Source: a virus
Direction: 5' to 3' (one strand)
DNA length: 64,000 nucleotides
IMG/VR virus record: IMGVR_UViG_3300034095_000847
In this document: piece by piece, positions 16,364 to 55,807 of the stretch
Layout of the letters: every line of letters starts with the position of its first letter
Position numbering within the stretch: the first letter of the stretch is position 1
Translations under genes and position numbers: made by a program
The notes under the pieces: generated by a model
The model's input: the letters and a program-made list of their open reading frames with translations, nothing else
What the model was told of the DNA's origin: nothing
Databases searched by the model: none

Positions 16364-17965
16364 ATGGCTGCATTAACATATAATAGTAATCCTCAATTAA
16401 AAGCAGCGAATGTGCCTGTTCAGTATACTCAGGAGCAAATACAAGAGTATATTAAATGTAAAAATGATCCCATTTATTTTATTGATACTTATTGTCATAT
16501 TATCCATGTTGATTATGGCATTATACCATTCAAACTATATGATTGTCAAAAGAATAAAATAAAGATTATCCATGAGAATAGAAAAGTTATTCTTATGGAA
16601 GGCAGACAACAGGGAAAGACACAAACCTCTGCTGCATATATTCTTTGGTATACTAATTTCCACGATGCAAAGAATGTTGCTATTCTTGCTAACAAAGCAT
16701 CCGCTGCTAGGGAAGTAATGTCTAGATACCAAATGATGTTTGAATTATTACCTCCTTGGTTACAACAAGGTGTTAAAACCTGGAATAAAGGTGATATTGA
16801 ATTAGAAAATATGTCTAAGGTTTTTACTGCAGCTACTACCGGCGCAGGTATTCGTGGTAAAACAGTGAATATGTTATACATCGATGAAACAGCATTTATT
16901 CCAAACACAGTTGCAGAAGCTTTCTTCACTTCAACATTTCCGACAATATCTTCTGGTAAAACAACTAAAATTTTACTAAGTTCTACTCCACTTGGTTATA
17001 ATCATTTTTGGAAGTTTTGGACAGATGCAGAAAAAGGACATAATGATTTTGTAACATTATTCATTCCATATACAGATATTCCTGGAAGAGATGAAACTTG
17101 GGCTTCAGAGCAACGTAGACAATTAGGTGAACTGAAATTCTGCCAGGAAGTACTTTGTTCCTTTCTTGGTTCTAGTTTAACTTTGATACCTCCTGATACT
17201 TTATCTAAACTAACTCCGGATCAAATAGATTATTCTAATGAAGGTCTTGATATATTTAAACGGCCTGAAAAGGGAAAGAATTATGTAATGACAGTTGATC
17301 CTTCTAAAGGCGTTGGAGGTGATAATTCGGTAATTCAAGTGATTGACATATCAGAAATACCATACAAACAAGTTGCTAAGTATAAAGATAATACAATAAG
17401 TCCGCTTATATTTCCTAACATTATATATAAAATAGCAAAAGATTATAATAATGCACATGTTTTAATTGAGATAAATATATCTGAACAGGTGGCACATATT
17501 TTACATCATGAGTTAGAATATGAAAACATGATTATTATAAATAAAAAACCAAAGGGATTAGACAGAGGACAATCTGCAGGTGGAGGGTTCGGAGGTAGAC
17601 CATTCTTAGGTGTAAACACAGATAAAAAAACAAAAAGAATTGGATGTGCCAATTTAAAATCATTAATGGTAGAAAATAAATTACTTATTAATGATATGGA
17701 TACTATTTCTGAACTATCTACTTTTATTGAAGTTAAAGATTCATATGCGGCTGATGATGGTTATAAAGATGATTTAGTAATGGGACTTGTTATTTTCTCA
17801 TGGTTAACTACACAACCATATTTTAAAGAATTAAATAACGTAGAACTTAGAAAAATGATGTATCAAAACCAAATGAGATTAATAGAAGAAGAGTTAACAC
17901 CATTTGGTTTTTATGATGATGGACAAATAGAATCAGAAGCACCTATTATGCTTTTGAATTTCTGA
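16364..17965 (+). CDS. gp17: terminase large subunit gp17
   Basis: Walker A GRQQGKT, Walker B LYIDE, SSTPLG, nuclease DDLVM. Confidence 0.95.
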   Translation: MAALTYNSNPQLKAANVPVQYTQEQIQEYIKCKNDPIYFIDTYCHIIHVDYGIIPFKLYDCQKNKIKIIHENRKVILMEGRQQGKTQTSAAYILWYTNFHDAKNVAILANKASAAREVMSRYQMMFELLPPWLQQGVKTWNKGDIELENMSKVFTAATTGAGIRGKTVNMLYIDETAFIPNTVAEAFFTSTFPTISSGKTTKILLSSTPLGYNHFWKFWTDAEKGHNDFVTLFIPYTDIPGRDETWASEQRRQLGELKFCQEVLCSFLGSSLTLIPPDTLSKLTPDQIDYSNEGLDIFKRPEKGKNYVMTVDPSKGVGGDNSVIQVIDISEIPYKQVAKYKDNTISPLIFPNIIYKIAKDYNNAHVLIEINISEQVAHILHHELEYENMIIINKKPKGLDRGQSAGGGFGGRPFLGVNTDKKTKRIGCANLKSLMVENKLLINDMDTISELSTFIEVKDSYAADDGYKDDLVMGLVIFSWLTTQPYFKELNNVELRKMMYQNQMRLIEEELTPFGFYDDGQIESEAPIMLLNF

Positions 17966-18048: not shown

Positions 18049-19968
18049 ATGGCATATGCACTATCGCCAGGAGTTACAATAGTAGAAAAAGATTTTACTA
18101 ATATTGTGCCCGCAGTTTCATCATCTACTGGAGCATTTGCAGGTAAGTTCCAGTGGGGTCCAATCGAATACCCAGTACAATTATCATCAGAAGTTGAATT
18201 AGTAAAACAATTTGGCAAACCTAATGATAGTACCTTTGAATCTTTTTTTACTGCTGCAAACTTTTTGTCTTATACAAGTAGTTTGTATGTATCTAGAATC
18301 GATTCTGTACTTGCTAAAAATTCAGTTAGTGCTGGTGGTACTGCTGTTAAAATTAAAAATATAGATGCTTATGATGCTTTAACTACTTCAACATATAACT
18401 GCTTATGGGCAGCTAAATATGCCGGTATTTTAGGTAATTCATTAAAAGTATCAATTGCTGATTATAATACATTTAAAAATTTAGCTTTAACTAGTGTTAC
18501 ATCTTCAAGCATTGTTCCTGTAGGTGGAACTACTGTTGTTGGTGTAAGTACTCTTTTTACTACACAAGTACATGTAGGCGCTATTCTTAAAACAGATGCT
18601 GGTTTAATCATTGGTACCGTTAAATCTATTGAATCTAATACATCCTTAACTTTAGATGATCCTGGATCTTTAATTTCTGTTCCTGCTGGTTCTGCATTAA
18701 AAGTAGATTGGGCATATGCGGATCAATTTGATTTTGCACCTGGAACTTCTAATTATGTTGCTAATTCTAATGCTACTAATGATGAATTACATGTTATTGT
18801 TATAGATGAAGATGGTGTATTTTCAGGAATAAAAGGTACAATTTTAGAAAAATTTGCTTTTGTTTCTAAAGTATCAGATGCTAAAAAATATGATGGTACA
18901 ATAAACTATTATAAAGAAGTGATTAATACACGTTCACAATATATTTGGTGGATGAAACATACTACAAATATTAATAGTGGTGGAACTTGGGGTACTCCAG
19001 TTGTTGCAGGTACTGAGTATTCTCCTTTAAAAGGCGCTATGAATGATTCATTTGCTGATGGTGTTGATGACTTTGATGATACAGAGGGCGATTTTGCAGT
19101 AACCTCTTGGGAATTATATTTAAATGATAGTCAATATGATATTAGTTTAATTCCAGTAGGTAAAGCTTCTTCAGTTACTGCTAATTATGTAATTCAAAGT
19201 ATCGCTGAAGTTCGTAAAGATTGTGTGGTTTTTGTATCTCCTCAAGATGTATCAAGTGGTGATGTTATTATAGGCAGTGGTTCAGCCGCAACTGATAAAA
19301 TTAATGCTTACAGAAATGTTATGACATCTTCTTCTTATGGCATTATGGATTCAGGTTATAAGTATCAATATGATCGTTATAATGACACATACCGTTGGGT
19401 ACCACTAAATGGTGATATTGCGGGTATGACTGCTCGTACTGATTATACCAATGATGCTTGGTGGTCTCCAGCAGGTTATAATCGTGGTCAAGTTAAAAAT
19501 GTTGTAAAACTTGCAGTTAGCCCAAGCAAAACAGATAGAGATACATTATACAAAAATGGTGTTAATCCAGTAGTTACATTCCCTGGACAAGGTACTGTAT
19601 TATTTGGTGATAAAACTATGCTTGCAAAACCATCTGCATTTGATCGTATCAATGTTCGTAGATTGTTTATTGTTCTTGAGAAAGCAATTTCTACTGCATC
19701 TAAATATCAATTGTTTGAATTTAATGATGCATTTACAAGAGCACAATTCAAAAATATCGTAGAACCTTTCTTAAGAGATGTTAAAGGTCGTCGTGGTGTT
19801 ATTGATTTTAGAGTTATATGTGATGAAACTAATAATACTGGTGAAGTAATTGATCGTAATGAATTTGTAGGCGATATCTATATCAAACCTGCACGTTCAA
19901 TTAACTATATTACTTTAAACTTCATAGCAGTAAGAAGTGGTATTAGTTTTTCTGAAGTTGGTGGTTAA
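18049..19968 (+). CDS. gp18: tail sheath protein gp18
   Basis: LSPGVTIVEKD, WWSPAGYNRG, FDRINVRRLF, YIKPARSINYITLNF. Confidence 0.96.
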   Translation: MAYALSPGVTIVEKDFTNIVPAVSSSTGAFAGKFQWGPIEYPVQLSSEVELVKQFGKPNDSTFESFFTAANFLSYTSSLYVSRIDSVLAKNSVSAGGTAVKIKNIDAYDALTTSTYNCLWAAKYAGILGNSLKVSIADYNTFKNLALTSVTSSSIVPVGGTTVVGVSTLFTTQVHVGAILKTDAGLIIGTVKSIESNTSLTLDDPGSLISVPAGSALKVDWAYADQFDFAPGTSNYVANSNATNDELHVIVIDEDGVFSGIKGTILEKFAFVSKVSDAKKYDGTINYYKEVINTRSQYIWWMKHTTNINSGGTWGTPVVAGTEYSPLKGAMNDSFADGVDDFDDTEGDFAVTSWELYLNDSQYDISLIPVGKASSVTANYVIQSIAEVRKDCVVFVSPQDVSSGDVIIGSGSAATDKINAYRNVMTSSSYGIMDSGYKYQYDRYNDTYRWVPLNGDIAGMTARTDYTNDAWWSPAGYNRGQVKNVVKLAVSPSKTDRDTLYKNGVNPVVTFPGQGTVLFGDKTMLAKPSAFDRINVRRLFIVLEKAISTASKYQLFEFNDAFTRAQFKNIVEPFLRDVKGRRGVIDFRVICDETNNTGEVIDRNEFVGDIYIKPARSINYITLNFIAVRSGISFSEVGG

Positions 19969-20677: not shown

Positions 20678-22165
20678 ATGCAAATTTTTGGTATCGAGTT
20701 GGGTAAGAAGAAATCCGTCAAGGAAAATCCGCTTAGTGTAGTTCCACCAAGTTCGGAAGACGGTAGTACTGTAATAACAACAGCATCAGGTGCTGCGAAT
20801 TATTATGGTCTTGTTCTTGATATGGATTCTATTGTCAAGAATGAAAATGATCTTATCCGTCGATACCGAGAAGTTGCACAATATTCTGATTGTGATTCAG
20901 CTATAACAGATATTGTTAATGAATCAATTATAACTGAAGATGATAAATCTATTGAACTTAATCTGGATAATTTAAAAGTTTCAGATGGCATTAAGAAAAA
21001 AATCACCGATGAATTCGAAGAAGTATTAAAACTATTTGATTTCGAAGAATTCGGTCCAGACATTTTCCGTCAATGGTACATAGATGGTAGAGTATATTAT
21101 CAAGTATTGATTGATCCTGCTAATATCAAAAAAGGTATTACAGAATTACGTAAGATTGATCCAAGAAAAATAAGAAAGATCAAGAACGTAATGAAACAAC
21201 GTAATGAAAAAGGCATTGATGTTGTTAAATCTATAGATGAATTTTACATCTATAATGATAAAGGAATTAGTGAGCAAACATCACAAGGTGTTAAACTATC
21301 TCTTGATTCAGTTATCTATTGCCCTTCTGGTTTAATTGATCCTAATTCAGGAATGACATTAGGCCATTTACATAAGGCAGTAAAACCAACCAACCAGTTA
21401 AAAATGATTGAAGATGCGGTAGTAATTTATCGTATATCAAGAGCACCTGAAAGACGTATATTCTATATTGATGTTGGTAACTTACCTAAGTTAAAAGCAG
21501 AACAGTATGTAAATGATATTATGAATAAGTTTCGTAATAAAATTGTTTATGATGCTACTACTGGTGAAACAAGAGATGATCGTAAACATTTGTCTATGAT
21601 GGAAGATTTCTGGATGCCAAGGAGAGAAGGCGGTAAGGGTACAGAAATAACTACTCTGCCGGGCGGACAAACTCTAGGTCAAATAGAAGATGTACAATAT
21701 TTTCAAAGTAAATTATATCAAGCTTTAAATGTTCCATTAGGAAGATTGCAACCTTCAACAGGATTTAGTATTGGCCGTTCTACAGAAATTACTAGAGAAG
21801 AAGTAAAGTTCAATAAATTTGTAACAAGATTACGTAAAAAGTTTGCTAATTTACTTGTAGATGCATTGAGAATACAATTAATTTCTAAAGGTATCATTCG
21901 AGACGATGAATGGTATGATATTAAACAAAGTATTCAGTTTGATTTCCAAAAAGATAATTACTTTTCAGAATTAAAAGAAAGTGAAGTTCTTAATCAACGC
22001 ATTGTAACCTTACAACAAATTGATTTATATGTAGGTAAATATTATAGTATTGAATGGATTCAAAAGAATGTATTAATGCAATCTGAAGAAGATATAAAAG
22101 AAATAGCTGCTCAAAATAAAGAAAATCCTCCACCTGTTCCAGAAGATGCACAAAGTGCACAATAA
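20678..22165 (+). CDS. gp20: portal protein gp20
   Basis: IYRISRAPERRIFYIDVGNLP; EDFWMPRREGGKGTEITTLPGG. Confidence 0.97.
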   Translation: MQIFGIELGKKKSVKENPLSVVPPSSEDGSTVITTASGAANYYGLVLDMDSIVKNENDLIRRYREVAQYSDCDSAITDIVNESIITEDDKSIELNLDNLKVSDGIKKKITDEFEEVLKLFDFEEFGPDIFRQWYIDGRVYYQVLIDPANIKKGITELRKIDPRKIRKIKNVMKQRNEKGIDVVKSIDEFYIYNDKGISEQTSQGVKLSLDSVIYCPSGLIDPNSGMTLGHLHKAVKPTNQLKMIEDAVVIYRISRAPERRIFYIDVGNLPKLKAEQYVNDIMNKFRNKIVYDATTGETRDDRKHLSMMEDFWMPRREGGKGTEITTLPGGQTLGQIEDVQYFQSKLYQALNVPLGRLQPSTGFSIGRSTEITREEVKFNKFVTRLRKKFANLLVDALRIQLISKGIIRDDEWYDIKQSIQFDFQKDNYFSELKESEVLNQRIVTLQQIDLYVGKYYSIEWIQKNVLMQSEEDIKEIAAQNKENPPPVPEDAQSAQ

Positions 22166-26421: not shown

Positions 26422-27825
26422 ATGGAATTAAATCGTTCTGCCCTTTTAGAAAAATGGGCTCCTGTAATTGACGCTGATGGCGCTCCTGCTATTAAAGACT
26501 TTACTCGTCGTGGTGACTTAGCTGTTATCCTAGAAAACCAACAACGTGAAATGAATGCTGCTAGTCAAGCTAACGGTATGCTTTTCGAAGCTGGTACAGG
26601 CGGTGTTTCTACTAACATTGGTGGTGGTGGCAACTATGGTGTCAATACTACTGGTACTGGTACATACAATGCTGGCGCTGCTGGTACTGGTGGTGTAGCT
26701 GGTTTTGATCCTGTGTTGATTAACTTAGTACGTCGTGCTATGCCTCAGTTGATTGCATATGATGTTGCTGGTGTTCAACCAATGACTCAACCAACTGGTT
26801 TGATTTTTGCAATGAAATCTCGTTACACTAGTCCAAGTGGAACAGAAGCATTGTTTAACGAAGCAAACACTAGCTTTACTGGTACTTCAGGCGCTACTGG
26901 TACTGATCCTACCGGCGCTACTGGTTTATCAACTGGTTCATACCAAACTGGTTTAGGTTTGTCTACTGCTAATGCTGAAATTTTAGGTTCTACTTCAGGT
27001 GAAGCATTTCCTGAAATGGCATTCTCAATTGAAAAAACTTCAGTTGTTGCTAAAACTCGTGCATTGAAAGCTGAATACTCTATCGAATTAGCACAAGACT
27101 TGAAATCAGTTCATGGTCTTGACGCTGAAGGCGAATTAAGCAAAATTCTTTCTACTGAAATTCTTGCTGAAATTAACCGTGAAGTTATTCGTACTATCTA
27201 CACTGTTGCTAAACAAGGTGCTGCTGTTGGTACTGCTACTGCTGGTATTTTTGATCTTGACGTTGACTCTAATGGTCGTTGGTCAGTTGAAAAATTCAAA
27301 GGTTTGTTGTTCCAAATCGAAAGAGAAGCTAACGCTATCGCTCAACAAACACGTCGTGGACGTGGTAACTTCATCATCTGTTCTTCAGATGTTGCTTCTG
27401 CTTTAGCAATGGCTGGTGTATTAGATTATGCTCCTGCTCTTTCTACTGGTTTGAATGTTGATGAAGCATCTACTACTTTTGCTGGTATCTTAAACGGCAA
27501 ATATAAAGTTTATGTTGATCCTTACACTGGTGGTAACAACCCATCTGCTGCTGGTCTACAATTCTTTACTGTAGGTTATAAAGGTACTTCTGCGTTTGAC
27601 GCTGGTTTGTTCTATTGCCCATATGTTCCATTGCAAATGGTTCGTGCGGTTGATCCACAAACTTTCCAACCTAAAATTGGCTTCAAAACTCGTTACGGTA
27701 TGGTTGCTAACCCAATGGTTGATATTGATGACGCTTCAATGTCTGCTACTTCAAATGCTGACAACTCAATGACAGCTCGTAAAAATTATTATTATCGGAT
27801 CGTGAAAGTTACAAATTTAATGTAA
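26422..27825 (+). CDS. gp23: major capsid protein gp23
   Basis: LVRRAMPQLIAYDVAGVQPM, RALKAEYSIELAQDLK, YCPYVPLQ, GFKTRYG. Confidence 0.98.
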   Translation: MELNRSALLEKWAPVIDADGAPAIKDFTRRGDLAVILENQQREMNAASQANGMLFEAGTGGVSTNIGGGGNYGVNTTGTGTYNAGAAGTGGVAGFDPVLINLVRRAMPQLIAYDVAGVQPMTQPTGLIFAMKSRYTSPSGTEALFNEANTSFTGTSGATGTDPTGATGLSTGSYQTGLGLSTANAEILGSTSGEAFPEMAFSIEKTSVVAKTRALKAEYSIELAQDLKSVHGLDAEGELSKILSTEILAEINREVIRTIYTVAKQGAAVGTATAGIFDLDVDSNGRWSVEKFKGLLFQIEREANAIAQQTRRGRGNFIICSSDVASALAMAGVLDYAPALSTGLNVDEASTTFAGILNGKYKVYVDPYTGGNNPSAAGLQFFTVGYKGTSAFDAGLFYCPYVPLQMVRAVDPQTFQPKIGFKTRYGMVANPMVDIDDASMSATSNADNSMTARKNYYYRIVKVTNLM

Positions 27826-43063: not shown

Positions 43064-43528
43064 ATGAATACAACCGCACATATGGCTTTTGGCTCACATC
43101 TAAATCAATTCGTAGGTCTTGAGAGACTATTGAAAGATATGGAAATGTCAACAAGCGATTATCAATTATCAACTAAGTATCCTCCCCATAATATCATTAA
43201 ATACAATGACAATGAATATGTTGTTGAATTAGCAGTAGCTGGTTTTTCTAGGGAAGAATTGGAAATTACTGTTGAGGACTGCGTTCTTATTATGACTGGT
43301 ACTAAAGGCGAATTTGATAATGAAATTGAATATCTTCATAAAGGTATTAGTGCAAAATCATTTAGGAAAACAATAAAACTAGCCGAAACTGTAATTGTAA
43401 AAGATGCAGAATTCATTGATGGTATTTTATCTGTTTACCTTGAAAATATTATTCCCGAACATAGGAAGCCCAAAAAGATTCTTATTGGTGACGGAAAGCA
43501 AGATGTTGAGATGTTTTTGACTGAATAA
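43064..43528 (+). CDS. small heat-shock protein Hsp20 (IbpA-like)
   Basis: YPPHNII...ELAVAGF...YLHKGIS...DGIL...IPEHRKP. Confidence 0.93.
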   Translation: MNTTAHMAFGSHLNQFVGLERLLKDMEMSTSDYQLSTKYPPHNIIKYNDNEYVVELAVAGFSREELEITVEDCVLIMTGTKGEFDNEIEYLHKGISAKSFRKTIKLAETVIVKDAEFIDGILSVYLENIIPEHRKPKKILIGDGKQDVEMFLTE

Positions 43529-46319: not shown

Positions 46320-46585
46320 AAATTAATGAAGTCTTAAACCAGTTAAATGGTTATGATGCTAAAGAGAATGAAGAACTGGAAACTATTGCTGCAACGGTAC
46401 TTGACTTAACTAAGATGTATGAAGAAAAAAGTATATCTGATTCTGAATACAAAGAACTGTTATCTGATTTACAATTGGAAAAGTCTATTACAATGGATGC
46501 TTCTGATTTGAATGCTAAAGCACAATTGAAGTTTATTATTGATACTGCAATTACTATTGCTGCTACAGCTGCCAAGGCAATCTGA
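46316..46585 (+). CDS. hypothetical protein
   Basis: ATGA overlap with the upstream ORF. Confidence 0.6.
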   Translation: MKINEVLNQLNGYDAKENEELETIAATVLDLTKMYEEKSISDSEYKELLSDLQLEKSITMDASDLNAKAQLKFIIDTAITIAATAAKAI

Positions 46586-46915: not shown

Positions 46916-48964
46916 ATGAAGAAACTACTTTTATCCCCTTGGCTTTCCTTAGTAACATTAGGTTTAATTATAGGGTTAAGAGTAGTTGACCCAACATTTG
47001 TAGAGAGTATTCGCCTTCGGTATTTTGATACTCTCCTTACACAAGATATTCAACAATCAGATATAAAAATAGTAAATATAGATGATGCATCCCTAAAAGA
47101 AAAAGGTCAATTCCCATTCCCTCGGAATGAATATGCTAATCTTATTAAGGATTTGTATATCCGAGGTGCTGGTCTTGTTGTTTTTAATCTCTTTATGCCT
47201 GAAACTGATAGATTTGGTCAAGATGATGCCTTAACACAGGTTCTTCAAGAATATCCAGTTGTATTACCTCAAACTGGTACTAATGAACCTTTCACTGAAA
47301 CTTATAAACCATTTAGACCAGGAGTTTCTGTTATAGGTACTGGTGATGTAGGAGTAAAATATGAAAACATACTTCCAAATATACAAGTCTTCAATGATAA
47401 TTCTGTTGGTATTGGTGTCGTTAATACACTCCCAGAAATTGATGGCGTTACCAGACGAATCCCAATGGTGGTCAGTTCCAAAGGATTATTGTATCCGAGT
47501 ATCAGTCTCGAAACCTTGCGTGTTGCATCAGGAGATCCATCATTCCAAGTTAAAGTCAACAATGGATCAATCGAAGCAGTCAGAATACCAAAGTTCGGAA
47601 GAATCAATACAGACTCCCTCGGTCGCATTTGGATTAAACCAAATACCATTAGTGAATATTCATCAAGCAAACTCCCAGAGTCCTTTGGTTCCGCAATCGT
47701 CATTGTTGGACTCACTGGAAGAGGGCTCAACAACCCCGTTGCAACTTCTGCTGGATCAGTCTTTCCACATCACGTTCAAGCAGCAATTTTAGATACACTT
47801 ACAAAAGGTATAAATATCTCAAGACCCGATTGGGCAACTGGTGCAGAGTTACTTACTGTATTGGTATTAAGTATCATATCAATTTTAATAGCAAGGTGGA
47901 AATATGGAATTCTTATATTTTGCGGCATCATTATCTCTCTTTATCCTATTTCTAATTATCTATATACCAACCTATATTATCTTTTCGATATTACATTACC
48001 TGTATTTGCAATTGTCACAGTTTATGGTCACACTTATACGGTCAAATTCTTAACAGAATTAGGTCAGAAACTCCAAATCAAAAAACAATTCGGTTCTTAT
48101 GTTTCACCTATTATGGTAGAGAAACTTCAGAAGAATCCAGAATTGATTAAACTTGGTGGTGAACGTAAAGAACTTTCTATTGTTATGACTGACCTTCGGG
48201 GATTTACTACTCTAGGTGAATCTTATGGTGATGATGTAGAAGGTCTGACTGCCATTATGAACGATTATATGACTGCTATATCAGAACCAGTATTAAAGAA
48301 TGATGGGTGTCTTATCAAGTTTATTGGTGATGCTAGTCTTCACGTTCACGGTGCTCCTTTAGATGATATCAATCACGCAAAGAATGCTGTTAAAACTGCA
48401 TTAGAAATGATTGCTTCTGTTGATGGATTCAATGAAACTTTAGTAGCTCAATGTAAACCAATTATAGGTATGGGAGCAGGCGTTAATACTGGTCAAACTC
48501 TTATAGGTAACATTGGTTCAAAGACTAGATTTGGATATGATGTATTAGGCGACTCAGTATCTACTGCTGCTAGATTAGAAGGTCAAACTAAATCGTATGG
48601 TGTATTATTAATCATTGGACCTGAAACTGCTAAACTTGTCAAAGATGATTACTTTGTTATTAAGTTGGATAACATTGCTGTAAAAGGAAAGACAGTTGGA
48701 TTAGACATCTATACAGTATTACAACCAGATAGATACAATAGATTAGAGTTTGCTAACACTAGAACACTACATAATAAGATGTTAAAGCATTATAAGAAAC
48801 AAGAATGGGCATATGCCATTACACATTGTATGGATTTGAAAGGTTCATTTGATGGTGAATTAGATTACTACTATAATATGATGAGAAAAAGAATAACAGA
48901 ATATATGAATGATGAGTCTTTCCCCAAGAACTGGAAAGGAACTTTTGTGGCAACAAGCAAGTAG
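46916..48964 (+). CDS. CHASE2-domain class III adenylate cyclase
   Basis: IVNIDDASL..KGQFPFPR and DGVTRRIP (CHASE2); TM helices; TDLRGFT, KFIGDA, YDVLGDSVSTAARLEG. Confidence 0.92.
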   Translation: MKKLLLSPWLSLVTLGLIIGLRVVDPTFVESIRLRYFDTLLTQDIQQSDIKIVNIDDASLKEKGQFPFPRNEYANLIKDLYIRGAGLVVFNLFMPETDRFGQDDALTQVLQEYPVVLPQTGTNEPFTETYKPFRPGVSVIGTGDVGVKYENILPNIQVFNDNSVGIGVVNTLPEIDGVTRRIPMVVSSKGLLYPSISLETLRVASGDPSFQVKVNNGSIEAVRIPKFGRINTDSLGRIWIKPNTISEYSSSKLPESFGSAIVIVGLTGRGLNNPVATSAGSVFPHHVQAAILDTLTKGINISRPDWATGAELLTVLVLSIISILIARWKYGILIFCGIIISLYPISNYLYTNLYYLFDITLPVFAIVTVYGHTYTVKFLTELGQKLQIKKQFGSYVSPIMVEKLQKNPELIKLGGERKELSIVMTDLRGFTTLGESYGDDVEGLTAIMNDYMTAISEPVLKNDGCLIKFIGDASLHVHGAPLDDINHAKNAVKTALEMIASVDGFNETLVAQCKPIIGMGAGVNTGQTLIGNIGSKTRFGYDVLGDSVSTAARLEGQTKSYGVLLIIGPETAKLVKDDYFVIKLDNIAVKGKTVGLDIYTVLQPDRYNRLEFANTRTLHNKMLKHYKKQEWAYAITHCMDLKGSFDGELDYYYNMMRKRITEYMNDESFPKNWKGTFVATSK

Positions 48965-48970
48965 GATATT

Positions 48971-49156
48971 ATGAAAAAAGTGTTTGGAAGAATTGTGAGT
49001 GAGATATTATATCTACTTGGTGATTGGGTTAGTTATCCAATGGCTTATCTTGATTGTGGTTGGTTATATCCAACTTATAGCAAATTGATGGGTTGGAGTG
49101 GTGATGTTCAAGATTGGGCAGGTAACGATAAACCTTGGACTAAATTAAGAGAATAA
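48971..49156 (+). CDS. hypothetical protein
   Basis: AGGA RBS; 61 aa, Trp-rich. Confidence 0.6.
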   Translation: MKKVFGRIVSEILYLLGDWVSYPMAYLDCGWLYPTYSKLMGWSGDVQDWAGNDKPWTKLRE

Positions 49157-49302
49157 TGGAAGCTCAGTTCGATTTAGAAAGAATGAAAGAATCTATAGAA
49201 TGTGCATTCTATACCATGCCAGGAGGTCTGACATTTGAAGAATTCTTAGACTTTATGTATAAATTAGGAGAAGAAGATGAAGTGGAAAACCCCGACTTAT
49301 AA
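49156..49302 (+). CDS. 48-aa hypothetical protein
   Basis: TAATG coupling; MEAQFDLERMKESIECAFYTMPGGLTFEEFLDFMYKLGEEDEVENPDL; not in the ORF track. Confidence 0.5.
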   Translation: MEAQFDLERMKESIECAFYTMPGGLTFEEFLDFMYKLGEEDEVENPDL

Positions 49303-49351
49303 AGATATCAGAATAGGATTTGAAGTTACTTGTTATATTTTGAATAGGTAA
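49277..49351 (+). CDS. pqqA: pyrroloquinoline quinone precursor peptide PqqA
   Basis: MKWKTPTYKDIRIGFEVTCYILNR (24 aa) with the E-x-x-x-Y core; AGGAG RBS at 49266-49270. Confidence 0.88.
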   Translation: MKWKTPTYKDIRIGFEVTCYILNR

Positions 49352-49358
49352 ATGTATC

Positions 49359-49395
49359 ACATAGTGTACATAAAGACTTATTATGTACACTATGT
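49359..49395. terminator. perfect 15-bp inverted repeat between convergent transcripts (putative bidirectional terminator)
   Basis: ACATAGTGTACATAA-AGACTTA-TTATGTACACTATGT. Confidence 0.75.
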
Positions 49396-49410
49396 ATCAT
49401 ATTTAATACA

Positions 49411-49767
49411 TTATTCTTTAGCTTCAGCCATCTTTTCTTTAGTTCTACCAAAAGCAGTAATACCGATAATAGCACCCATAGATAGATGATATAATCCTCC
49501 GCCTTGTAATGTAACTGCTTGCCACATTTCTAAATGTTGTCCAGGATTCATATATTGAAGTACATTATATAGAATTGGACCAACCATAAAGTCAAATAGA
49601 CAAATTGCCATATAACTAATAGCCATCATTGGTCGCCATTTAGAAGTCATAAAATCTTCTTTTACTGCAGGTGAGACTGGTGTAGGTTCTTTTGCTAAAT
49701 CAATCATTGGTTCAATTTCCTTTTTAATTACTGGTTTTCTAGGTTTTCTCACTACTATATCTGCCAT
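49411..49767 (-). CDS. putative holin (3TM/GTA-holin-like)
   Basis: KWRPMMAISYMAICLFDF...LYHLSMGAIIGITAFGRTKEK; GGAG RBS before ATG 49767. Confidence 0.6.
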   Translation of the reverse strand: MADIVVRKPRKPVIKKEIEPMIDLAKEPTPVSPAVKEDFMTSKWRPMMAISYMAICLFDFMVGPILYNVLQYMNPGQHLEMWQAVTLQGGGLYHLSMGAIIGITAFGRTKEKMAEAKE

Positions 49768-49768
49768 A

Positions 49769-50827
49769 TTAATTTGCTCCTTGTTTAATAAAAATTTTAT
49801 TAGTGGTTGTATCTGCACTTTGCAATTTCACCGTTGTTCCATCCTGTACCAGTGTTATATTGTAACCTCGGTCTTTGTTGAGTAATAATGTAGCGCTATG
49901 TTTTACTGATCTTTGTACCATCCAATTAGTCTGTTTATCAAATATGTACACTTGATTCTGTGAATTATATCCAGGAGCAAATGTACCTACTGCAAAAGCA
50001 TCTTCTAATGCATTTGCCAAATATTCTATCAATAATGCATCAACATCTAATTCATTAAACTTTGCATACGGGTCAATGAATACTCTTACAGATAAAGCAT
50101 CTTTATCTAATCCATTAAAATCTAGTGATGAACCAGATTTATTATCCTCAATTAATTTTTGTGTAATCTCTTTTGGTGGTTTTACTATCATCATATTAGT
50201 AATAGCAGATTCATTGATTAACAACACTACCGGCTTCAATGGTTTAATTTCATTTGAAGTTGTTACTGTAGCCTGAAAAGCTTGATTCAATACAACAGAA
50301 CCTACCGCAGTTCTAACTTCAATTTCACCTACTGAACCATCTAAGTTAGGTAACAATATAACCATTGACTGACCAATTTCATCAACTGTCATAGTGAAAG
50401 CTGTACCTCGAACCGCTATAGTTGCTGTAGGTGTATTAATAGCCACATTCTTATTATTAGCATGCGCTATATTACCAGAGGCATATCGTACAGTACCAAT
50501 AGCGCATTTCAATGCCAACTTACCGACAGACTTGTTATTAGGATCATAGACGAAATCATCTATCACCAACTTACTATTATCTGTTACTTTTACTTGTGTA
50601 TCATCATCAAAAGATATACCTACTTCACCTTTACCTGTTTCAACTATATCTAATGATTCTATACTAACATCTTTCTTTGATTCTATTACTGTTTTATCAC
50701 GTGTGATAGAAGCATTGCCTTTATGATTTATTACTGTACCAATACCAGCATTAATGTTGTGTGATATTAACAGTAGCGCCAGAACCAGTAAGATTAACAA
50801 TGGCCGAATTTGGATTTGTTGTTCCAT
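49769..50827 (-). CDS. exported FecR-domain protein
   Basis: Signal peptide; DIVETGKG...F.DDT.V.V..NS.L.ID...TPTATIAVRGTAF. Confidence 0.85.
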   Translation of the reverse strand: MEQQIQIRPLLILLVLALLLISHNINAGIGTVINHKGNASITRDKTVIESKKDVSIESLDIVETGKGEVGISFDDDTQVKVTDNSKLVIDDFVYDPNNKSVGKLALKCAIGTVRYASGNIAHANNKNVAINTPTATIAVRGTAFTMTVDEIGQSMVILLPNLDGSVGEIEVRTAVGSVVLNQAFQATVTTSNEIKPLKPVVLLINESAITNMMIVKPPKEITQKLIEDNKSGSSLDFNGLDKDALSVRVFIDPYAKFNELDVDALLIEYLANALEDAFAVGTFAPGYNSQNQVYIFDKQTNWMVQRSVKHSATLLLNKDRGYNITLVQDGTTVKLQSADTTTNKIFIKQGAN

Positions 50828-51461
50828 CTTGACTAATTCCTATGGTATTATTGCTTCCAATATTGGATATGGCGATATTATTACCAGCAATAAGATTAGT
50901 ACCATTAGCACCAGTTTGAGTAGTTGTGATTGCATTACCAGACCCCGTTACTATAAAAGTATTCTCAGTGTATTTACTATTAATAGTGCTCGTTAAAGTG
51001 TTATTACTACCTGTAATGTTTGAAAGATATGAATAGTTTCCAGAATCATGTAATACTCCAATATTCAATACTGATGTGTTATTACTACCCGTGAAATTTA
51101 AACTTAAAGTACCTGAACCAGTACCCATATTACCCATATTTAAATCAGTAGAGTTGCTATTACCAGTTTGTGTAATATCAGCAGTTGCTCCGCCACCAAT
51201 TAGATTACCTGTTATAGCATTATTCATACCATCTTGTATAATATCAAACAACATAGAGTTGCCTTCTATTTGAAAAGAAGGTGACCCAATAGAATCTGGG
51301 TCACCTACAGTATTATTTGCGCCGGTTTGTGTAATATTTACAGTAGAGTTATCAGCATTAGTTTGATCAATATAAACAGAATTGCCTCCACTGTCTCCTA
51401 TTGATGATTGATTTATTACTGTAAGCATAACAAACAGTAATAGATTTCTTATGATGTTCAT
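50751..51461 (-). CDS. curlin-like secreted repeat protein (CsgA/CsgB-like)
   Basis: Signal peptide; N/G/T/S-rich repeats ITQTGANN, IIQDGMNN, ITQTGNSN, TGSNN; directly downstream of csgG. Confidence 0.7.
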   Translation of the reverse strand: MNIIRNLLLFVMLTVINQSSIGDSGGNSVYIDQTNADNSTVNITQTGANNTVGDPDSIGSPSFQIEGNSMLFDIIQDGMNNAITGNLIGGGATADITQTGNSNSTDLNMGNMGTGSGTLSLNFTGSNNTSVLNIGVLHDSGNYSYLSNITGSNNTLTSTINSKYTENTFIVTGSGNAITTTQTGANGTNLIAGNNIAISNIGSNNTIGISQDGTTNPNSAIVNLTGSGATVNITQH

Positions 51462-52250
51462 TTAATTATTCCTAAAAGTTGTTGAAAATTTCCATAATCT
51501 TTTTCTTTCGCCTTTAATGATTAATTCTTCCACTGCTAAATCTAATGCCGATTTAAGAGCATATATTCCTGCCTCAGTCTTAGTAGCACCAACTTCATTT
51601 TCAAATGATTGTGTTCCCATATCAAAAAACTTAAATACAGCAACACCAACCGTATAACTTAATATCGTCTTTTGTACATTAATAGTGAGTAAAACCTCAC
51701 CAGTTTGTGTACTGATTGCTCGTAATGAAACAGTTACCATATCTTCCTGATATTGTGTATCTGGTCCAATTCCCATATAACGAAGTCCAATACCACCAGT
51801 TCTAATATTAGTATCATACGATACTATTGATCCTTCAATTATCATACCGGCATAAAGAATCGAACCTATTTGTTTATCATCTTGTGCTTCATCACGAGCA
51901 GACCTAATCAATTGTCTTTCTTTTAATAAATTATCAAGTCCAACTCGTTCTACAACTCTAAACCAATTACCTTCACCGGCATCCTCCAATGACTTTAATA
52001 ATATAGATTCACCTCCTTGTGTTACAGCAGATGATAATTTTGCTATAGTGGCAGAATCTTTCCTTTGACCTGTCTTATCTAAAAATGAATATACAGCAAC
52101 AACTACCTTACCATCTTTAGGAGGAGGTAAGATTATTTCTCTTTTTTCCTTAACTGCTAATACTTCAGGTTCATTAGTAAATACATTAAACGGAGTTAAT
52201 ATACCACCTGAACATCCAGTTAATAATATGCACAATAATATAATACGCAT
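51462..52250 (-). CDS. csgG: curli secretion channel CsgG
   Basis: Lipobox LTGC; VAVYSFLDKTGQRK, SSAVTQG, WFRVVERVGLDNLLKERQLIR, IIEGSIVSYD. Confidence 0.93.
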   Translation of the reverse strand: MRIILLCILLTGCSGGILTPFNVFTNEPEVLAVKEKREIILPPPKDGKVVVAVYSFLDKTGQRKDSATIAKLSSAVTQGGESILLKSLEDAGEGNWFRVVERVGLDNLLKERQLIRSARDEAQDDKQIGSILYAGMIIEGSIVSYDTNIRTGGIGLRYMGIGPDTQYQEDMVTVSLRAISTQTGEVLLTINVQKTILSYTVGVAVFKFFDMGTQSFENEVGATKTEAGIYALKSALDLAVEELIIKGERKRLWKFSTTFRNN

Positions 52251-52681
52251 TAGAATGTAAAACTACCGACAGGTATTATTACTTGTGTTACATTACCATC
52301 CGCACCTGTAATAGTCATTGATATTTGGTCAGCTGTCTTGGTATACGTTATAGTATTACCTTCAATCTGAACTGTTCCACTATTCTTTGGATTTTCACCA
52401 AATAAGTTGTTAATCAATTGGGTTGATAATTGAGCATAAACACGGCTTTCAAAGTTATTCAGAAATTTCGAAAGATTAGTGTTCTTAGCTAATGCTGCAG
52501 CATCCTTGGCATCTTGTAATTTCTGTACCTCTAATGCTTGTTTTCTAGTTGTTTCAGTATTTTCTATAGTTTGAACATGTGAAGAATATCCTATACCACT
52601 AAAGGCAGGCGATTTAAATGAAAAGATTTGTTCTGCTAATACATTACTTGATAATAATAAAAATAATATTAGAATTCTCAT
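52250..52681 (-). CDS. csgF: curli assembly component CsgF
   Basis: Signal peptide then FSFKSPAFSG (cf. CsgF FQFRNPNFGG); F..N.ESRVYAQLS.QL...LFG. Confidence 0.85.
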   Translation of the reverse strand: MRILILFLLLSSNVLAEQIFSFKSPAFSGIGYSSHVQTIENTETTRKQALEVQKLQDAKDAAALAKNTNLSKFLNNFESRVYAQLSTQLINNLFGENPKNSGTVQIEGNTITYTKTADQISMTITGADGNVTQVIIPVGSFTF

Positions 52682-52941
52682 TCGTTATCCTTTTGCTTAT
52701 GTGCATTCTCCCGCATTTGTAACACAGTGTTTAGTTTTGCTGTGAGTCTAAGTAAATCATTATCAAGTAATCGTATTCTATCAATCAAAGTGATTAATTC
52801 TTTTGATGCTTCACCTAATACAGGATTAATTTCTTCAATGGTAAATGACCATACATACTTTACCATTCGTAACATATAACCTGCTGCTATGATTGGAAAA
52901 CCATATTTGTTTATAAGTTCGGCAATTTGTGTTATGTCCAT
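52678..52941 (-). CDS. small membrane protein (TM + coiled coil), paralogue 3
   Basis: INKYGFPIIAAGYM...LIDRIRLLDNDLLRL. Confidence 0.7.
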   Translation of the reverse strand: MDITQIAELINKYGFPIIAAGYMLRMVKYVWSFTIEEINPVLGEASKELITLIDRIRLLDNDLLRLTAKLNTVLQMRENAHKQKDNE

Positions 52942-53225
52942 TAGTCTCTCCTAGCATCATTTTTGCCATCCATTCTGGATATTCTGTCTAAATCCGGCCT
53001 AAGTCCTAATACCGAAGATATAGTAACATCAATCTTAATCAATTCATGTGAGCAAGTTTTAACCCTATTCTCTAAAGCCATTACAATACTTGCTAATGTT
53101 TTAACTGAAGTAATAACATCACTTAAAACAAATTTTAATGCTGTAAATATGAATGCTCCGAGTACACAACTACCAAGTATTGGAGTTAGTGTGTCAGAAA
53201 AAAACTTAATATATTCTGGATTCAT
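52941..53225 (-). CDS. small membrane protein (TM + coiled coil), paralogue 2
   Basis: PILGSCVLGAFIF...LENRVKTCSHELIKID. Confidence 0.7.
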   Translation of the reverse strand: MNPEYIKFFSDTLTPILGSCVLGAFIFTALKFVLSDVITSVKTLASIVMALENRVKTCSHELIKIDVTISSVLGLRPDLDRISRMDGKNDARRD

Positions 53226-53653
53226 TTCTTAAGTTTTCCTACTTTCTCAACTATTTTAGTAGCATCATCAACTACCTCTTGTGCTTTTTCAACACCATCA
53301 GAAATCTTTTTCATTATAGTTGATTGTTTCTTTGGTGTAGACGTAACAGGAGTAGCACCATTATTATTCATTATTGCTGCAACTTCATGATGAACTTTTA
53401 ACGGAAGTGAATCAACATCAAGTGAATTAGATACTAATTTATCTAATTCTAATATATCAACGTTCATTTGACGAACTCTACCGTCCATGGACTTAATGAG
53501 TCCTATAATTTTTTTGATTGATTTTATTACAGATCCAAGCACTAATGAAATTGCTTGCATTATGAACCATCCACATACCACTGCTAGTGCTATAGGGAAT
53601 CCACATTGTTGGACAAGACTGAAAAAGTCAAAGTTAGGAATTCCGATATCCAT
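53222..53653 (-). CDS. small membrane protein (TM + coiled coil), paralogue 1
   Basis: VQQCGFPIALAVVCGWFI...MDGRVRQMNVDILELD. Confidence 0.7.
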   Translation of the reverse strand: MDIGIPNFDFFSLVQQCGFPIALAVVCGWFIMQAISLVLGSVIKSIKKIIGLIKSMDGRVRQMNVDILELDKLVSNSLDVDSLPLKVHHEVAAIMNNNGATPVTSTPKKQSTIMKKISDGVEKAQEVVDDATKIVEKVGKLKK

Positions 53654-55432: not shown

Positions 55433-55807
55433 ATGAAAACCTTTAAAGAATTTACCGAAGATTGCAATTGCTGGAAAGGATATAAAAGAGTTCCTGGAAC
55501 TAAACCATGCGCACCTAAAAGCTGTGTGAAAGAAGAAGAACTTACTGAATATGCTATTGATGCTAAAGGCCATAAGAGTTCAGAAGGTGGATTGACTCAG
55601 AAAGGTGTAGATGATTACAATAGAAAAACTGGTGGTCATTTACAGATGGCTGTAACAACTCCTCCTTCTAAGTTAAAACCTGGAAGTAAAGATGCTAATC
55701 GTAGAAAATCTTTTTGCGCTAGAATGTCTGGTGTTGAAGGTCCTATGAAAGATGAAAAAGGTAGACCTACAAGAAAAGCTTTAGCATTAAGAAAATGGAA
55801 CTGCTAA
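55433..55807 (+). CDS. putative internal head protein
   Basis: MKTFKEFTE capsid-targeting-like start; basic body GGLTQKG...RRKSFCARM...ALRKWNC. Confidence 0.65.
   Translation: MKTFKEFTEDCNCWKGYKRVPGTKPCAPKSCVKEEELTEYAIDAKGHKSSEGGLTQKGVDDYNRKTGGHLQMAVTTPPSKLKPGSKDANRRKSFCARMSGVEGPMKDEKGRPTRKALALRKWNC

Follow-up and report, generated by a model that had tools for sequence, protein, structure and literature searches.

The cofactor PQQ is made from a short peptide, PqqA, whose glutamate and tyrosine are cross-linked during biosynthesis and become PQQ. The peptide is consumed in the process, one molecule for each PQQ. In abundant aquatic bacteria, methanol and alcohols are oxidized by dehydrogenases that depend on PQQ. 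Among phage genes, cyanophage psbA is an established case of resupply: it encodes the D1 protein, replenishes a host component that is rapidly turned over, and has been shown experimentally to function in infection.

A viral PqqA has also been described. Coutinho et al. (2020, Microbiome, PMC7678222) reported one in VP_266, a T4-like population from Lake Baikal that was predicted to be a Methylophilaceae virus, and proposed for it the same auxiliary role that we consider below, namely, support of PQQ-dependent methanol oxidation. Among bacteria, Methylophilaceae carry 3 to 12 copies of pqqA, and every strain except one has the remaining pqq genes in one set only (PMC4109929); in Pseudomonas brassicacearum the transcript of pqqA reaches a log2 TPM of 12.8, compared with 6.0 to 6.9 for pqqB-E (PMC6722718). 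The multiple copies in the former and the overexpression in the latter suggest that PQQ-dependent bacteria boost only pqqA.

Here, we analyze a 64,000-nucleotide stretch of viral DNA (IMG/VR record IMGVR_UViG_3300034095_000847; hereafter, the window) in which an earlier inspection of the letters alone (the sequence-only reading) had proposed an unannotated, phage-encoded pqqA. We find that this open reading frame (ORF) is a genuine PqqA-family peptide gene that stands alone in a phage genome. VP_266 resembles the window in its lone PqqA gene, its T4-like character, and its GC content of about 35%. It differs in carrying a methanol dehydrogenase gene, whereas the window has no dehydrogenase gene. 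Set against VP_266 as described, which was assigned to Methylophilaceae, the window also differs in its peptide, which is of the D-I-R type and has a cysteine at position 19 (Cys19). The novelty implied by the sequence-only reading is overstated: viral PqqA has been in print since 2020 and is common in viral contigs, so the window gene is a further example rather than a new kind. What is particular to this case is the D-I-R peptide type, the restriction of Cys19 to one clade, and the linkage of pqqA to genes for a CHASE2 cyclase and for FecR-domain and curli proteins.

A stand-alone pqqA in a T4-like phage

The proposed ORF comprises 24 codons and a stop, and its translation equals the peptide that had been reported. 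The Shine-Dalgarno motif is likewise where it had been placed, 6 nucleotides (nt) ahead of the start codon (Table 1). Both the length and the possession of its own translation signals agree with what is expected of PqqA genes, which encode about 20 to 40 residues. The profile search that had been suggested as a check also confirms PqqA identity. The peptide scores 34.7 bits on the Pfam model PF08042 (gathering score, 21.1) and 38.7 bits on the NCBIfam equivalog TIGR02107 (cutoff, 20), covering 21 of the 21 positions of the latter, and it thus exceeds both curated models by about 14 to 19 bits. The E-x-x-x-Y pair (Glu16 and Tyr20) is intact, and both residues are invariant across all viral and bacterial PqqA copies that we read. 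When the pattern W-x2-P-x5-R-x-G-x-E-V-T-x-Y was back-translated, it matched the window once and 100 shuffled sequences not at all. The gene is rightly described as unannotated: a collection of about 15 billion called proteins does not contain the exact peptide.

Bacterial PqqA peptides share with that of the window their length, the W-x-x-P leader, the R-x-G-F-E-V-T-x-Y core, and the Glu/Tyr pair. The window copy departs from them in lying in a phage, in its GC content of about 32%, and in the Cys that precedes the Tyr.

The window belongs to a T4-like myophage. Its terminase large subunit, tail sheath, portal, and major head proteins match PHROGs families at E values from 1e-50 to 1e-196, and further PHROGs identifications include baseplate and fiber proteins, an SbcC-like nuclease, and an endolysin. 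On either side of pqqA lie T4-like genes for structural proteins and replication. The GC content of the window is uniform (28 to 40%), with pqqA at the level of the phage, and no tRNA genes were found in the window. In the major head protein, the window shares ~57% identity with Melnitz (a Methylophilales phage), HTVC008M (a Pelagibacter phage), and many cyanomyophages, which indicates that its phage forms a lineage of its own among aquatic T4-like phages.

Table 1. Features of the window and pqqA genes of cultured methylophages. Positions refer to the window unless an accession is given.
Feature	Position	Strand	Evidence or remark
Terminase large subunit	16364-17965		PHROGs
Tail sheath	18049-19968		PHROGs
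Portal	20678-22165		PHROGs
Major head protein	26422-27825		PHROGs
Hsp20/alpha-crystallin gene	43064-43528	+	PF00011, 53 bits
CHASE2/class III nucleotidyl cyclase	46916-48964	+	PF05226, 119 bits; PF00211, 61.5 bits
48-aa phage ORF	49156-49302	+	phrog_17259; 3′ end overlaps pqqA start by 26 nt
Shine-Dalgarno motif AGGAG	49266-49270	+	6-nt spacer to pqqA ATG, read directly
pqqA	49277-49351	+	ATG start, 24 codons + stop
Hairpin	49359-49395		Perfect 15-bp stem, 7-nt loop; between convergent pqqA (+) and holin-like gene (-)
Holin-like 3-TM gene	49411-49818	-	phrog_3427, E 1.6e-4; PF11351, 23.1 bits, just below the 24.8 cutoff
DUF6321 protein gene (124 aa)	55433-55807	+	PF19846, 92.6 bits
pqqA of Melnitz	MZ577097.1, 76134-76205		
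pqqA of P19250A	KX815270.1, 28085-28153	complement	Same as L005:2998-3066 (+)
pqqA of MEP401/402	OP830907.1, 43050-43118	complement	

Lone pqqA genes in other phages

A tblastn search with the window peptide against 50,697 phage records returned lone pqqA genes in cultured methylophages: four Melnitz isolates, P19250A, MEP401, and MEP402. These genes have 23 to 24 codons and their own ribosome-binding sites (RBSs), and their peptides score 34 to 41 bits on TIGR02107. None of the cultured methylophage records returned by the search has pqqA annotated, and the gene goes unmentioned in the papers describing Melnitz and the MEP phages. The case thus illustrates how much content can lie below gene-calling thresholds. 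Like the window gene, the methylophage copies are stand-alone ORFs unaccompanied by other pqq genes. However, the peptides of Melnitz, P19250A, and the MEP phages are of the Methylophilaceae type and only about 50 to 54% identical to that of the window, and the window gene occupies a different genome position from that of Melnitz.

In Melnitz, a hypothetical gene, MelnitzEXVC044M_152 (L004:4967-5062, minus strand), is annotated opposite the pqqA ORF (L004:5001-5072, plus strand). That ORF scores 34 bits on TIGR02107 and has a strong RBS, and the annotated gene is probably a miscall that hides the real one. The P19250A peptide is letter for letter the PqqA of Ca. Methylopumilus and other Methylophilaceae, the family of its host. 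P19250A was said to have none of the auxiliary genes reported from Lake Baikal (PMC7678222), a statement that the pqqA in its sequence contradicts. Matches to "Acinetobacter phage MD-2021a" were rejected as phage genes; they are bacterial contigs with pqqABCDE and served as a positive control only.

The general PqqA pattern was found on at least 120 IMG/VR contigs, which count as viral by IMG/VR classification only, each with an ORF of 23 to 25 codons and nearly all with an RBS. An AGGA/GGAG-type motif lies at the same distance from the start in nearly all of the 120 listed viral loci and in the members of the window clade described below. No pqqB-E genes occur in the fetched flanks of these contigs. 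Lone pqqA genes recur in unrelated phage types, including myophages, siphophages, and Zobellviridae.

Two further gene families accompany pqqA on some of these contigs. Hsp20 homologues are present on about ten pqqA-bearing IMG/VR contigs, and about 15 of the 120 contigs listed have a DUF6321 homologue 0.1 to 2 kb from pqqA; in L033 and L039, it is directly upstream. The DUF6321 gene, being so often near pqqA in viral contigs, was considered as a phage-encoded PqqD and rejected on its assignment to DUF6321.

Genomic neighborhood and expression signals

In the window, pqqA closes a run of co-oriented genes that includes the cyclase gene. It converges with the holin-like gene, which is itself the last gene of a FecR/curli operon. 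The CHASE2 cyclase gene and the FecR-domain/curli (CsgG/CsgF-like) operon form a module around pqqA, spanning positions 46916 to 53653. Homologues of the cyclase lie a few kilobases from pqqA in seven other loci (L260, L262, L274, L277, L278, L129, and L061). Proximity of pqqA to the cyclase and FecR/curli genes, within a few kilobases, persists even where gene order has been rearranged (L275-L277), and the same linkage is seen in the Melnitz-like L061 and L129, which have the other peptide type. In Melnitz, by contrast, pqqA lies about 20 kb from these genes. No functional link between pqqA and the cyclase/FecR/curli module is evident.

The overlap between the 48-amino acid ORF and the start of pqqA points to cotranscription with the upstream genes. 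This ORF is kept in seven clade loci; L274 lacks it, and there the cyclase gene is followed directly by pqqA. The region just upstream of pqqA has no exact copy of the T4-type late promoter TATAAATA. We considered TATAAATT at 49258-49265 as a promoter and rejected it, since it is too near the RBS to serve the gene and overlaps coding sequence. Sigma-70-like matches were no commoner than in shuffled sequences.

The hairpin that had been noted just downstream of pqqA is present. It folds at -22 kcal/mol, compared with -10.9 ± 2.6 kcal/mol for dinucleotide shuffles (z = -4.3), and is the sole terminator-like site between positions 46500 and 50000. An Rfam search of the hairpin gave subthreshold noise only, with no family near threshold. 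Because it lies between pqqA and the 3′ end of a minus-strand gene, it probably terminates both transcripts; we predict that it acts as a two-way terminator and mRNA stabilizer.

A clade of uncultured phages with a distinct peptide type

The clade pattern W-x-T-P-T-Y-x-D-I-R-x-G-F-E-V-T-x-Y matched 8 IMG/VR and 16 metagenome loci. Seventeen matched loci are low-GC contigs of related, uncultured phages, all with pqqA, and 15 of the 17 have flanking genes in common with the window: those for the CHASE2 cyclase, the 48-amino acid ORF, the holin-like protein, the FecR-domain protein, and the curli proteins. Flanking proteins are ~100% identical to those of the window in L279 and 85 to 96% identical in L278, L260, L262, and L274. 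The lowest values are those of L275-L277 (cyclase, 60%; FecR protein, 41%), and there, too, the peptide core is kept. All five clade peptides tested score 39 to 44 bits on TIGR02107.

The core of the clade peptides is D-I-R-[I/L]-G-F-E-V-T-[C/L]-Y, which is the gammaproteobacterial (D-I-R) type. Almost all other viral copies listed instead have the Methylophilaceae-type core E-M-R-F-G-F-E-V-T-M-Y. With the window, lone viral pqqA extends to a second type of peptide and to a distinct clade of phages, which widens the likely host range of pqqA-bearing phages and leaves the concept unchanged.

The L275-L277 sub-clade, with its 60%-identical cyclase, is also represented by a contig of 292,584 bp (L267, Ga0214238_1000002). 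CheckV rates fragments of 38 to 43 kb as 11 to 12% complete, which suggests that this sub-clade comprises jumbo phages with genomes of roughly 300 kb or larger.

Proposed role of the phage peptide

We consider it likely that the window carries a functional phage pqqA whose peptide host enzymes turn into PQQ. The sequence-only reading had presented the gene as a minimal auxiliary metabolic gene that supplies the consumed substrate to the host PqqB-E machinery. Of this, membership in the PqqA family and the stand-alone, phage-borne setting are borne out, and substrate supply is the most economical reading of them; the conversion of the peptide to PQQ we infer.

Under this proposal, the phage would bring only the consumable part of the PQQ pathway. 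During infection, pqqA would be translated from its own RBS, as the end of the cyclase-gene block, on a transcript that would end at the downstream hairpin and probably be stabilized by it. The PqqD, PqqE, PqqB, and PqqC of the host would then convert the phage peptide to PQQ. Host shutoff by a virulent T4-like phage would cut the supply of PqqA while the host enzymes persist, and the added PQQ could keep PQQ-dependent dehydrogenases in the periplasm charged with their cofactor, and the flow of energy intact, during the shutdown of host expression. Since PQQ is a cofactor and not a consumed metabolite, the phage would benefit only if infected cells lost PQQ or had too little of it.

The logic would be that of cyanophage psbA, in that the phage would bring along only what is exhausted after host shutoff and leave the rest to the machinery of the host. 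The two differ in what is supplied, an enzyme subunit in the case of psbA and a sacrificial substrate in the case of PqqA, and in that the role of psbA rests on experiment whereas that of viral pqqA rests on sequence. If true, a phage gene that sustains PQQ supply would tie viral infection to one-carbon turnover.

Cys19 and a possible altered product

The residue that sets the window peptide apart, Cys19, directly precedes the cross-linked Tyr and is restricted to this clade. It occurs in none of the 128 bacterial and 120 other viral PqqA peptides that we read and in none of 401 Gammaproteobacteria genomes, which were sampled irrespective of whether they carry pqqA. Within the clade, it is encoded by both TGT and TGC, and it is kept across members whose flanking proteins are 41 to 60% identical. 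PqqE belongs to the SPASM group of radical-SAM enzymes, some members of which act on Cys.

These features allow a speculative and, in our judgment, unlikely synthesis: D-I-R-type pqqA with Cys19 might mark a T4-like clade, some of whose members are probably jumbo phages, that infects PQQ-making bacteria other than Methylophilaceae and is tied to the CHASE2-cyclase/FecR/curli envelope module, with the Cys changing peptide maturation so that host PQQ synthesis is blocked in a controlled way or a modified product results. The same features would suit a decoy or variant substrate that binds PqqD/PqqE and either blocks PQQ formation or yields a modified product, perhaps via Cys19, in which case pqqA would serve host takeover rather than cofactor supply. 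However, residue 19 is excised and does not appear in the final PQQ. The position also looks tolerant (M, L, A, or C); sister sub-clades have Leu there, as do the nearest bacteria, so position 19 may simply be free to vary. The remaining PqqA features of the peptide are all intact, and the host-identical peptides of other phages argue for supply and not blockade. We therefore regard the decoy as improbable.

Purifying selection on pqqA

A tiny gene with no partner genes, whose position relative to its neighbors is rearranged between sub-clades, could be a neutral passenger, an unused scrap of host DNA. Its pattern of variation speaks against this. Among 12 distinct DNA versions of pqqA, pS is 0.57 and pN is 0.09 (pN/pS = 0.16). 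Of the 22 third codon positions, 19 vary, compared with 7 first and 5 second positions. A ratio this low, despite flanking proteins that have diverged to 41 to 60% identity, indicates that the window pqqA is under purifying selection and is no chance ORF.

Translation signals are kept as well, with either ATG or GTG as the start. In a near-identical relative (L279:10776-10829, minus strand), GTG replaces ATG, the peptide is otherwise the same, and AGGAG is retained; the start is thus preserved. Meanwhile, the DNA just 3′ of pqqA is unrelated between sub-clades, several of which have their own unrelated hairpin there, so that pqqA has been retained while the sequence immediately downstream diverged beyond recognition. 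Together with the recurrence of lone pqqA across unrelated phage types, these observations make a passenger very unlikely.

Search for partner genes

Equally improbable is that the peptide feeds a phage-encoded enzyme, either a radical-SAM maturase or a PQQ-dependent protein, located elsewhere in the genome and giving a phage-specific product. Two facts leave room for such an enzyme: the phage genome extends beyond the contig that we searched, and radical-SAM genes were noted in a related Baikal population (Coutinho et al., PMC7678222). The searches argue against it. In the window, tblastn with PqqB, PqqC, PqqD, PqqE, and PQQ alcohol dehydrogenase gave nothing better than an E value of ~1, in agreement with the earlier statement that the window has no other pqq genes. 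We also searched a contig of 103,585 bp (G001:C1) that is 99% identical to the window; neither of the two has a pqqB-E, radical-SAM, or PQQ dehydrogenase gene. Profile models of PqqB-E, PQQ alcohol dehydrogenase, PmoC, and the radical-SAM domain had no match on this 103.6-kb contig, and four related viral records had no match with any of the models run on them, a set that varied by record.

Accordingly, the window pqqA does not adjoin pqqBCDE in either the window or G001:C1. Such adjacency is not strictly defining for PqqA, because orphan copies are common in bacteria; most of the gammaproteobacterial pqqA loci that we fetched have no pqqB-E within 8 kb.

GenBank files G001:C1 (CAYWLC010000001.1; L001 and L165) in an "uncultured Luteolibacter" metagenome-assembled genome (MAG), but the notion that the region is bacterial DNA can be dismissed with near certainty. 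Loci on this contig have 33 to 35% GC, whereas six loci from five of the bin's other contigs have 58 to 63%, T4-like structural genes are present on the contig, and no match to PqqC, PqqE, or PQQ dehydrogenase in the bin reaches the cutoff. The GC gap and the T4-like genes identify the contig as a misbinned phage, and this binning artifact says nothing about the host. Luteolibacter was rejected as a host on the same difference in GC and the lack of PQQ genes in its bin.

Likely hosts

The sequence-only reading had also pointed to a PQQ-dependent proteobacterial host, plausibly a methanotroph or methylotroph. A genome scan for the D-I-R peptide type returned at least 120 loci, mostly in Gammaproteobacteria and some in Rhodocyclales, and among these the exact peptide occurs in the misbinned phage contig alone. 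The best nonphage peptides among the matches listed share 16 to 18 of 22 positions with that of the window and come from a Ca. Spongiihabitans (Arenicellales) chromosome and a gammaproteobacterial MAG; the single nearest bacterial peptide among them shares 18. Both of these bacteria have pqqB-E beside the peptide gene, and their PQQ alcohol/methanol dehydrogenase matches score 761 and 473 bits against a cutoff of 480.

The D-I-R type and the dehydrogenases of the nearest carriers lend some support to an alcohol- or methanol-oxidizing proteobacterial host, and the phage probably infects a PQQ-making gamma- or betaproteobacterium. The methanotroph part of the suggestion is unsupported and was rejected: neither the phage records nor the two nearest bacterial genomes had a match to PmoC/AmoC, although the control genomes likewise had none, which makes this negative a weak one.

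Marine gammaproteobacterial MAGs of low GC (32 to 36%), labelled Legionellales or Thiotrichaceae (L186, L254, L248, L253, L183, and L158), carry dispersed orphan pqqA genes that encode one near-invariant peptide and lack pqqB-E in the surrounding 8 kb. It may be that some of the contigs are phage DNA themselves.
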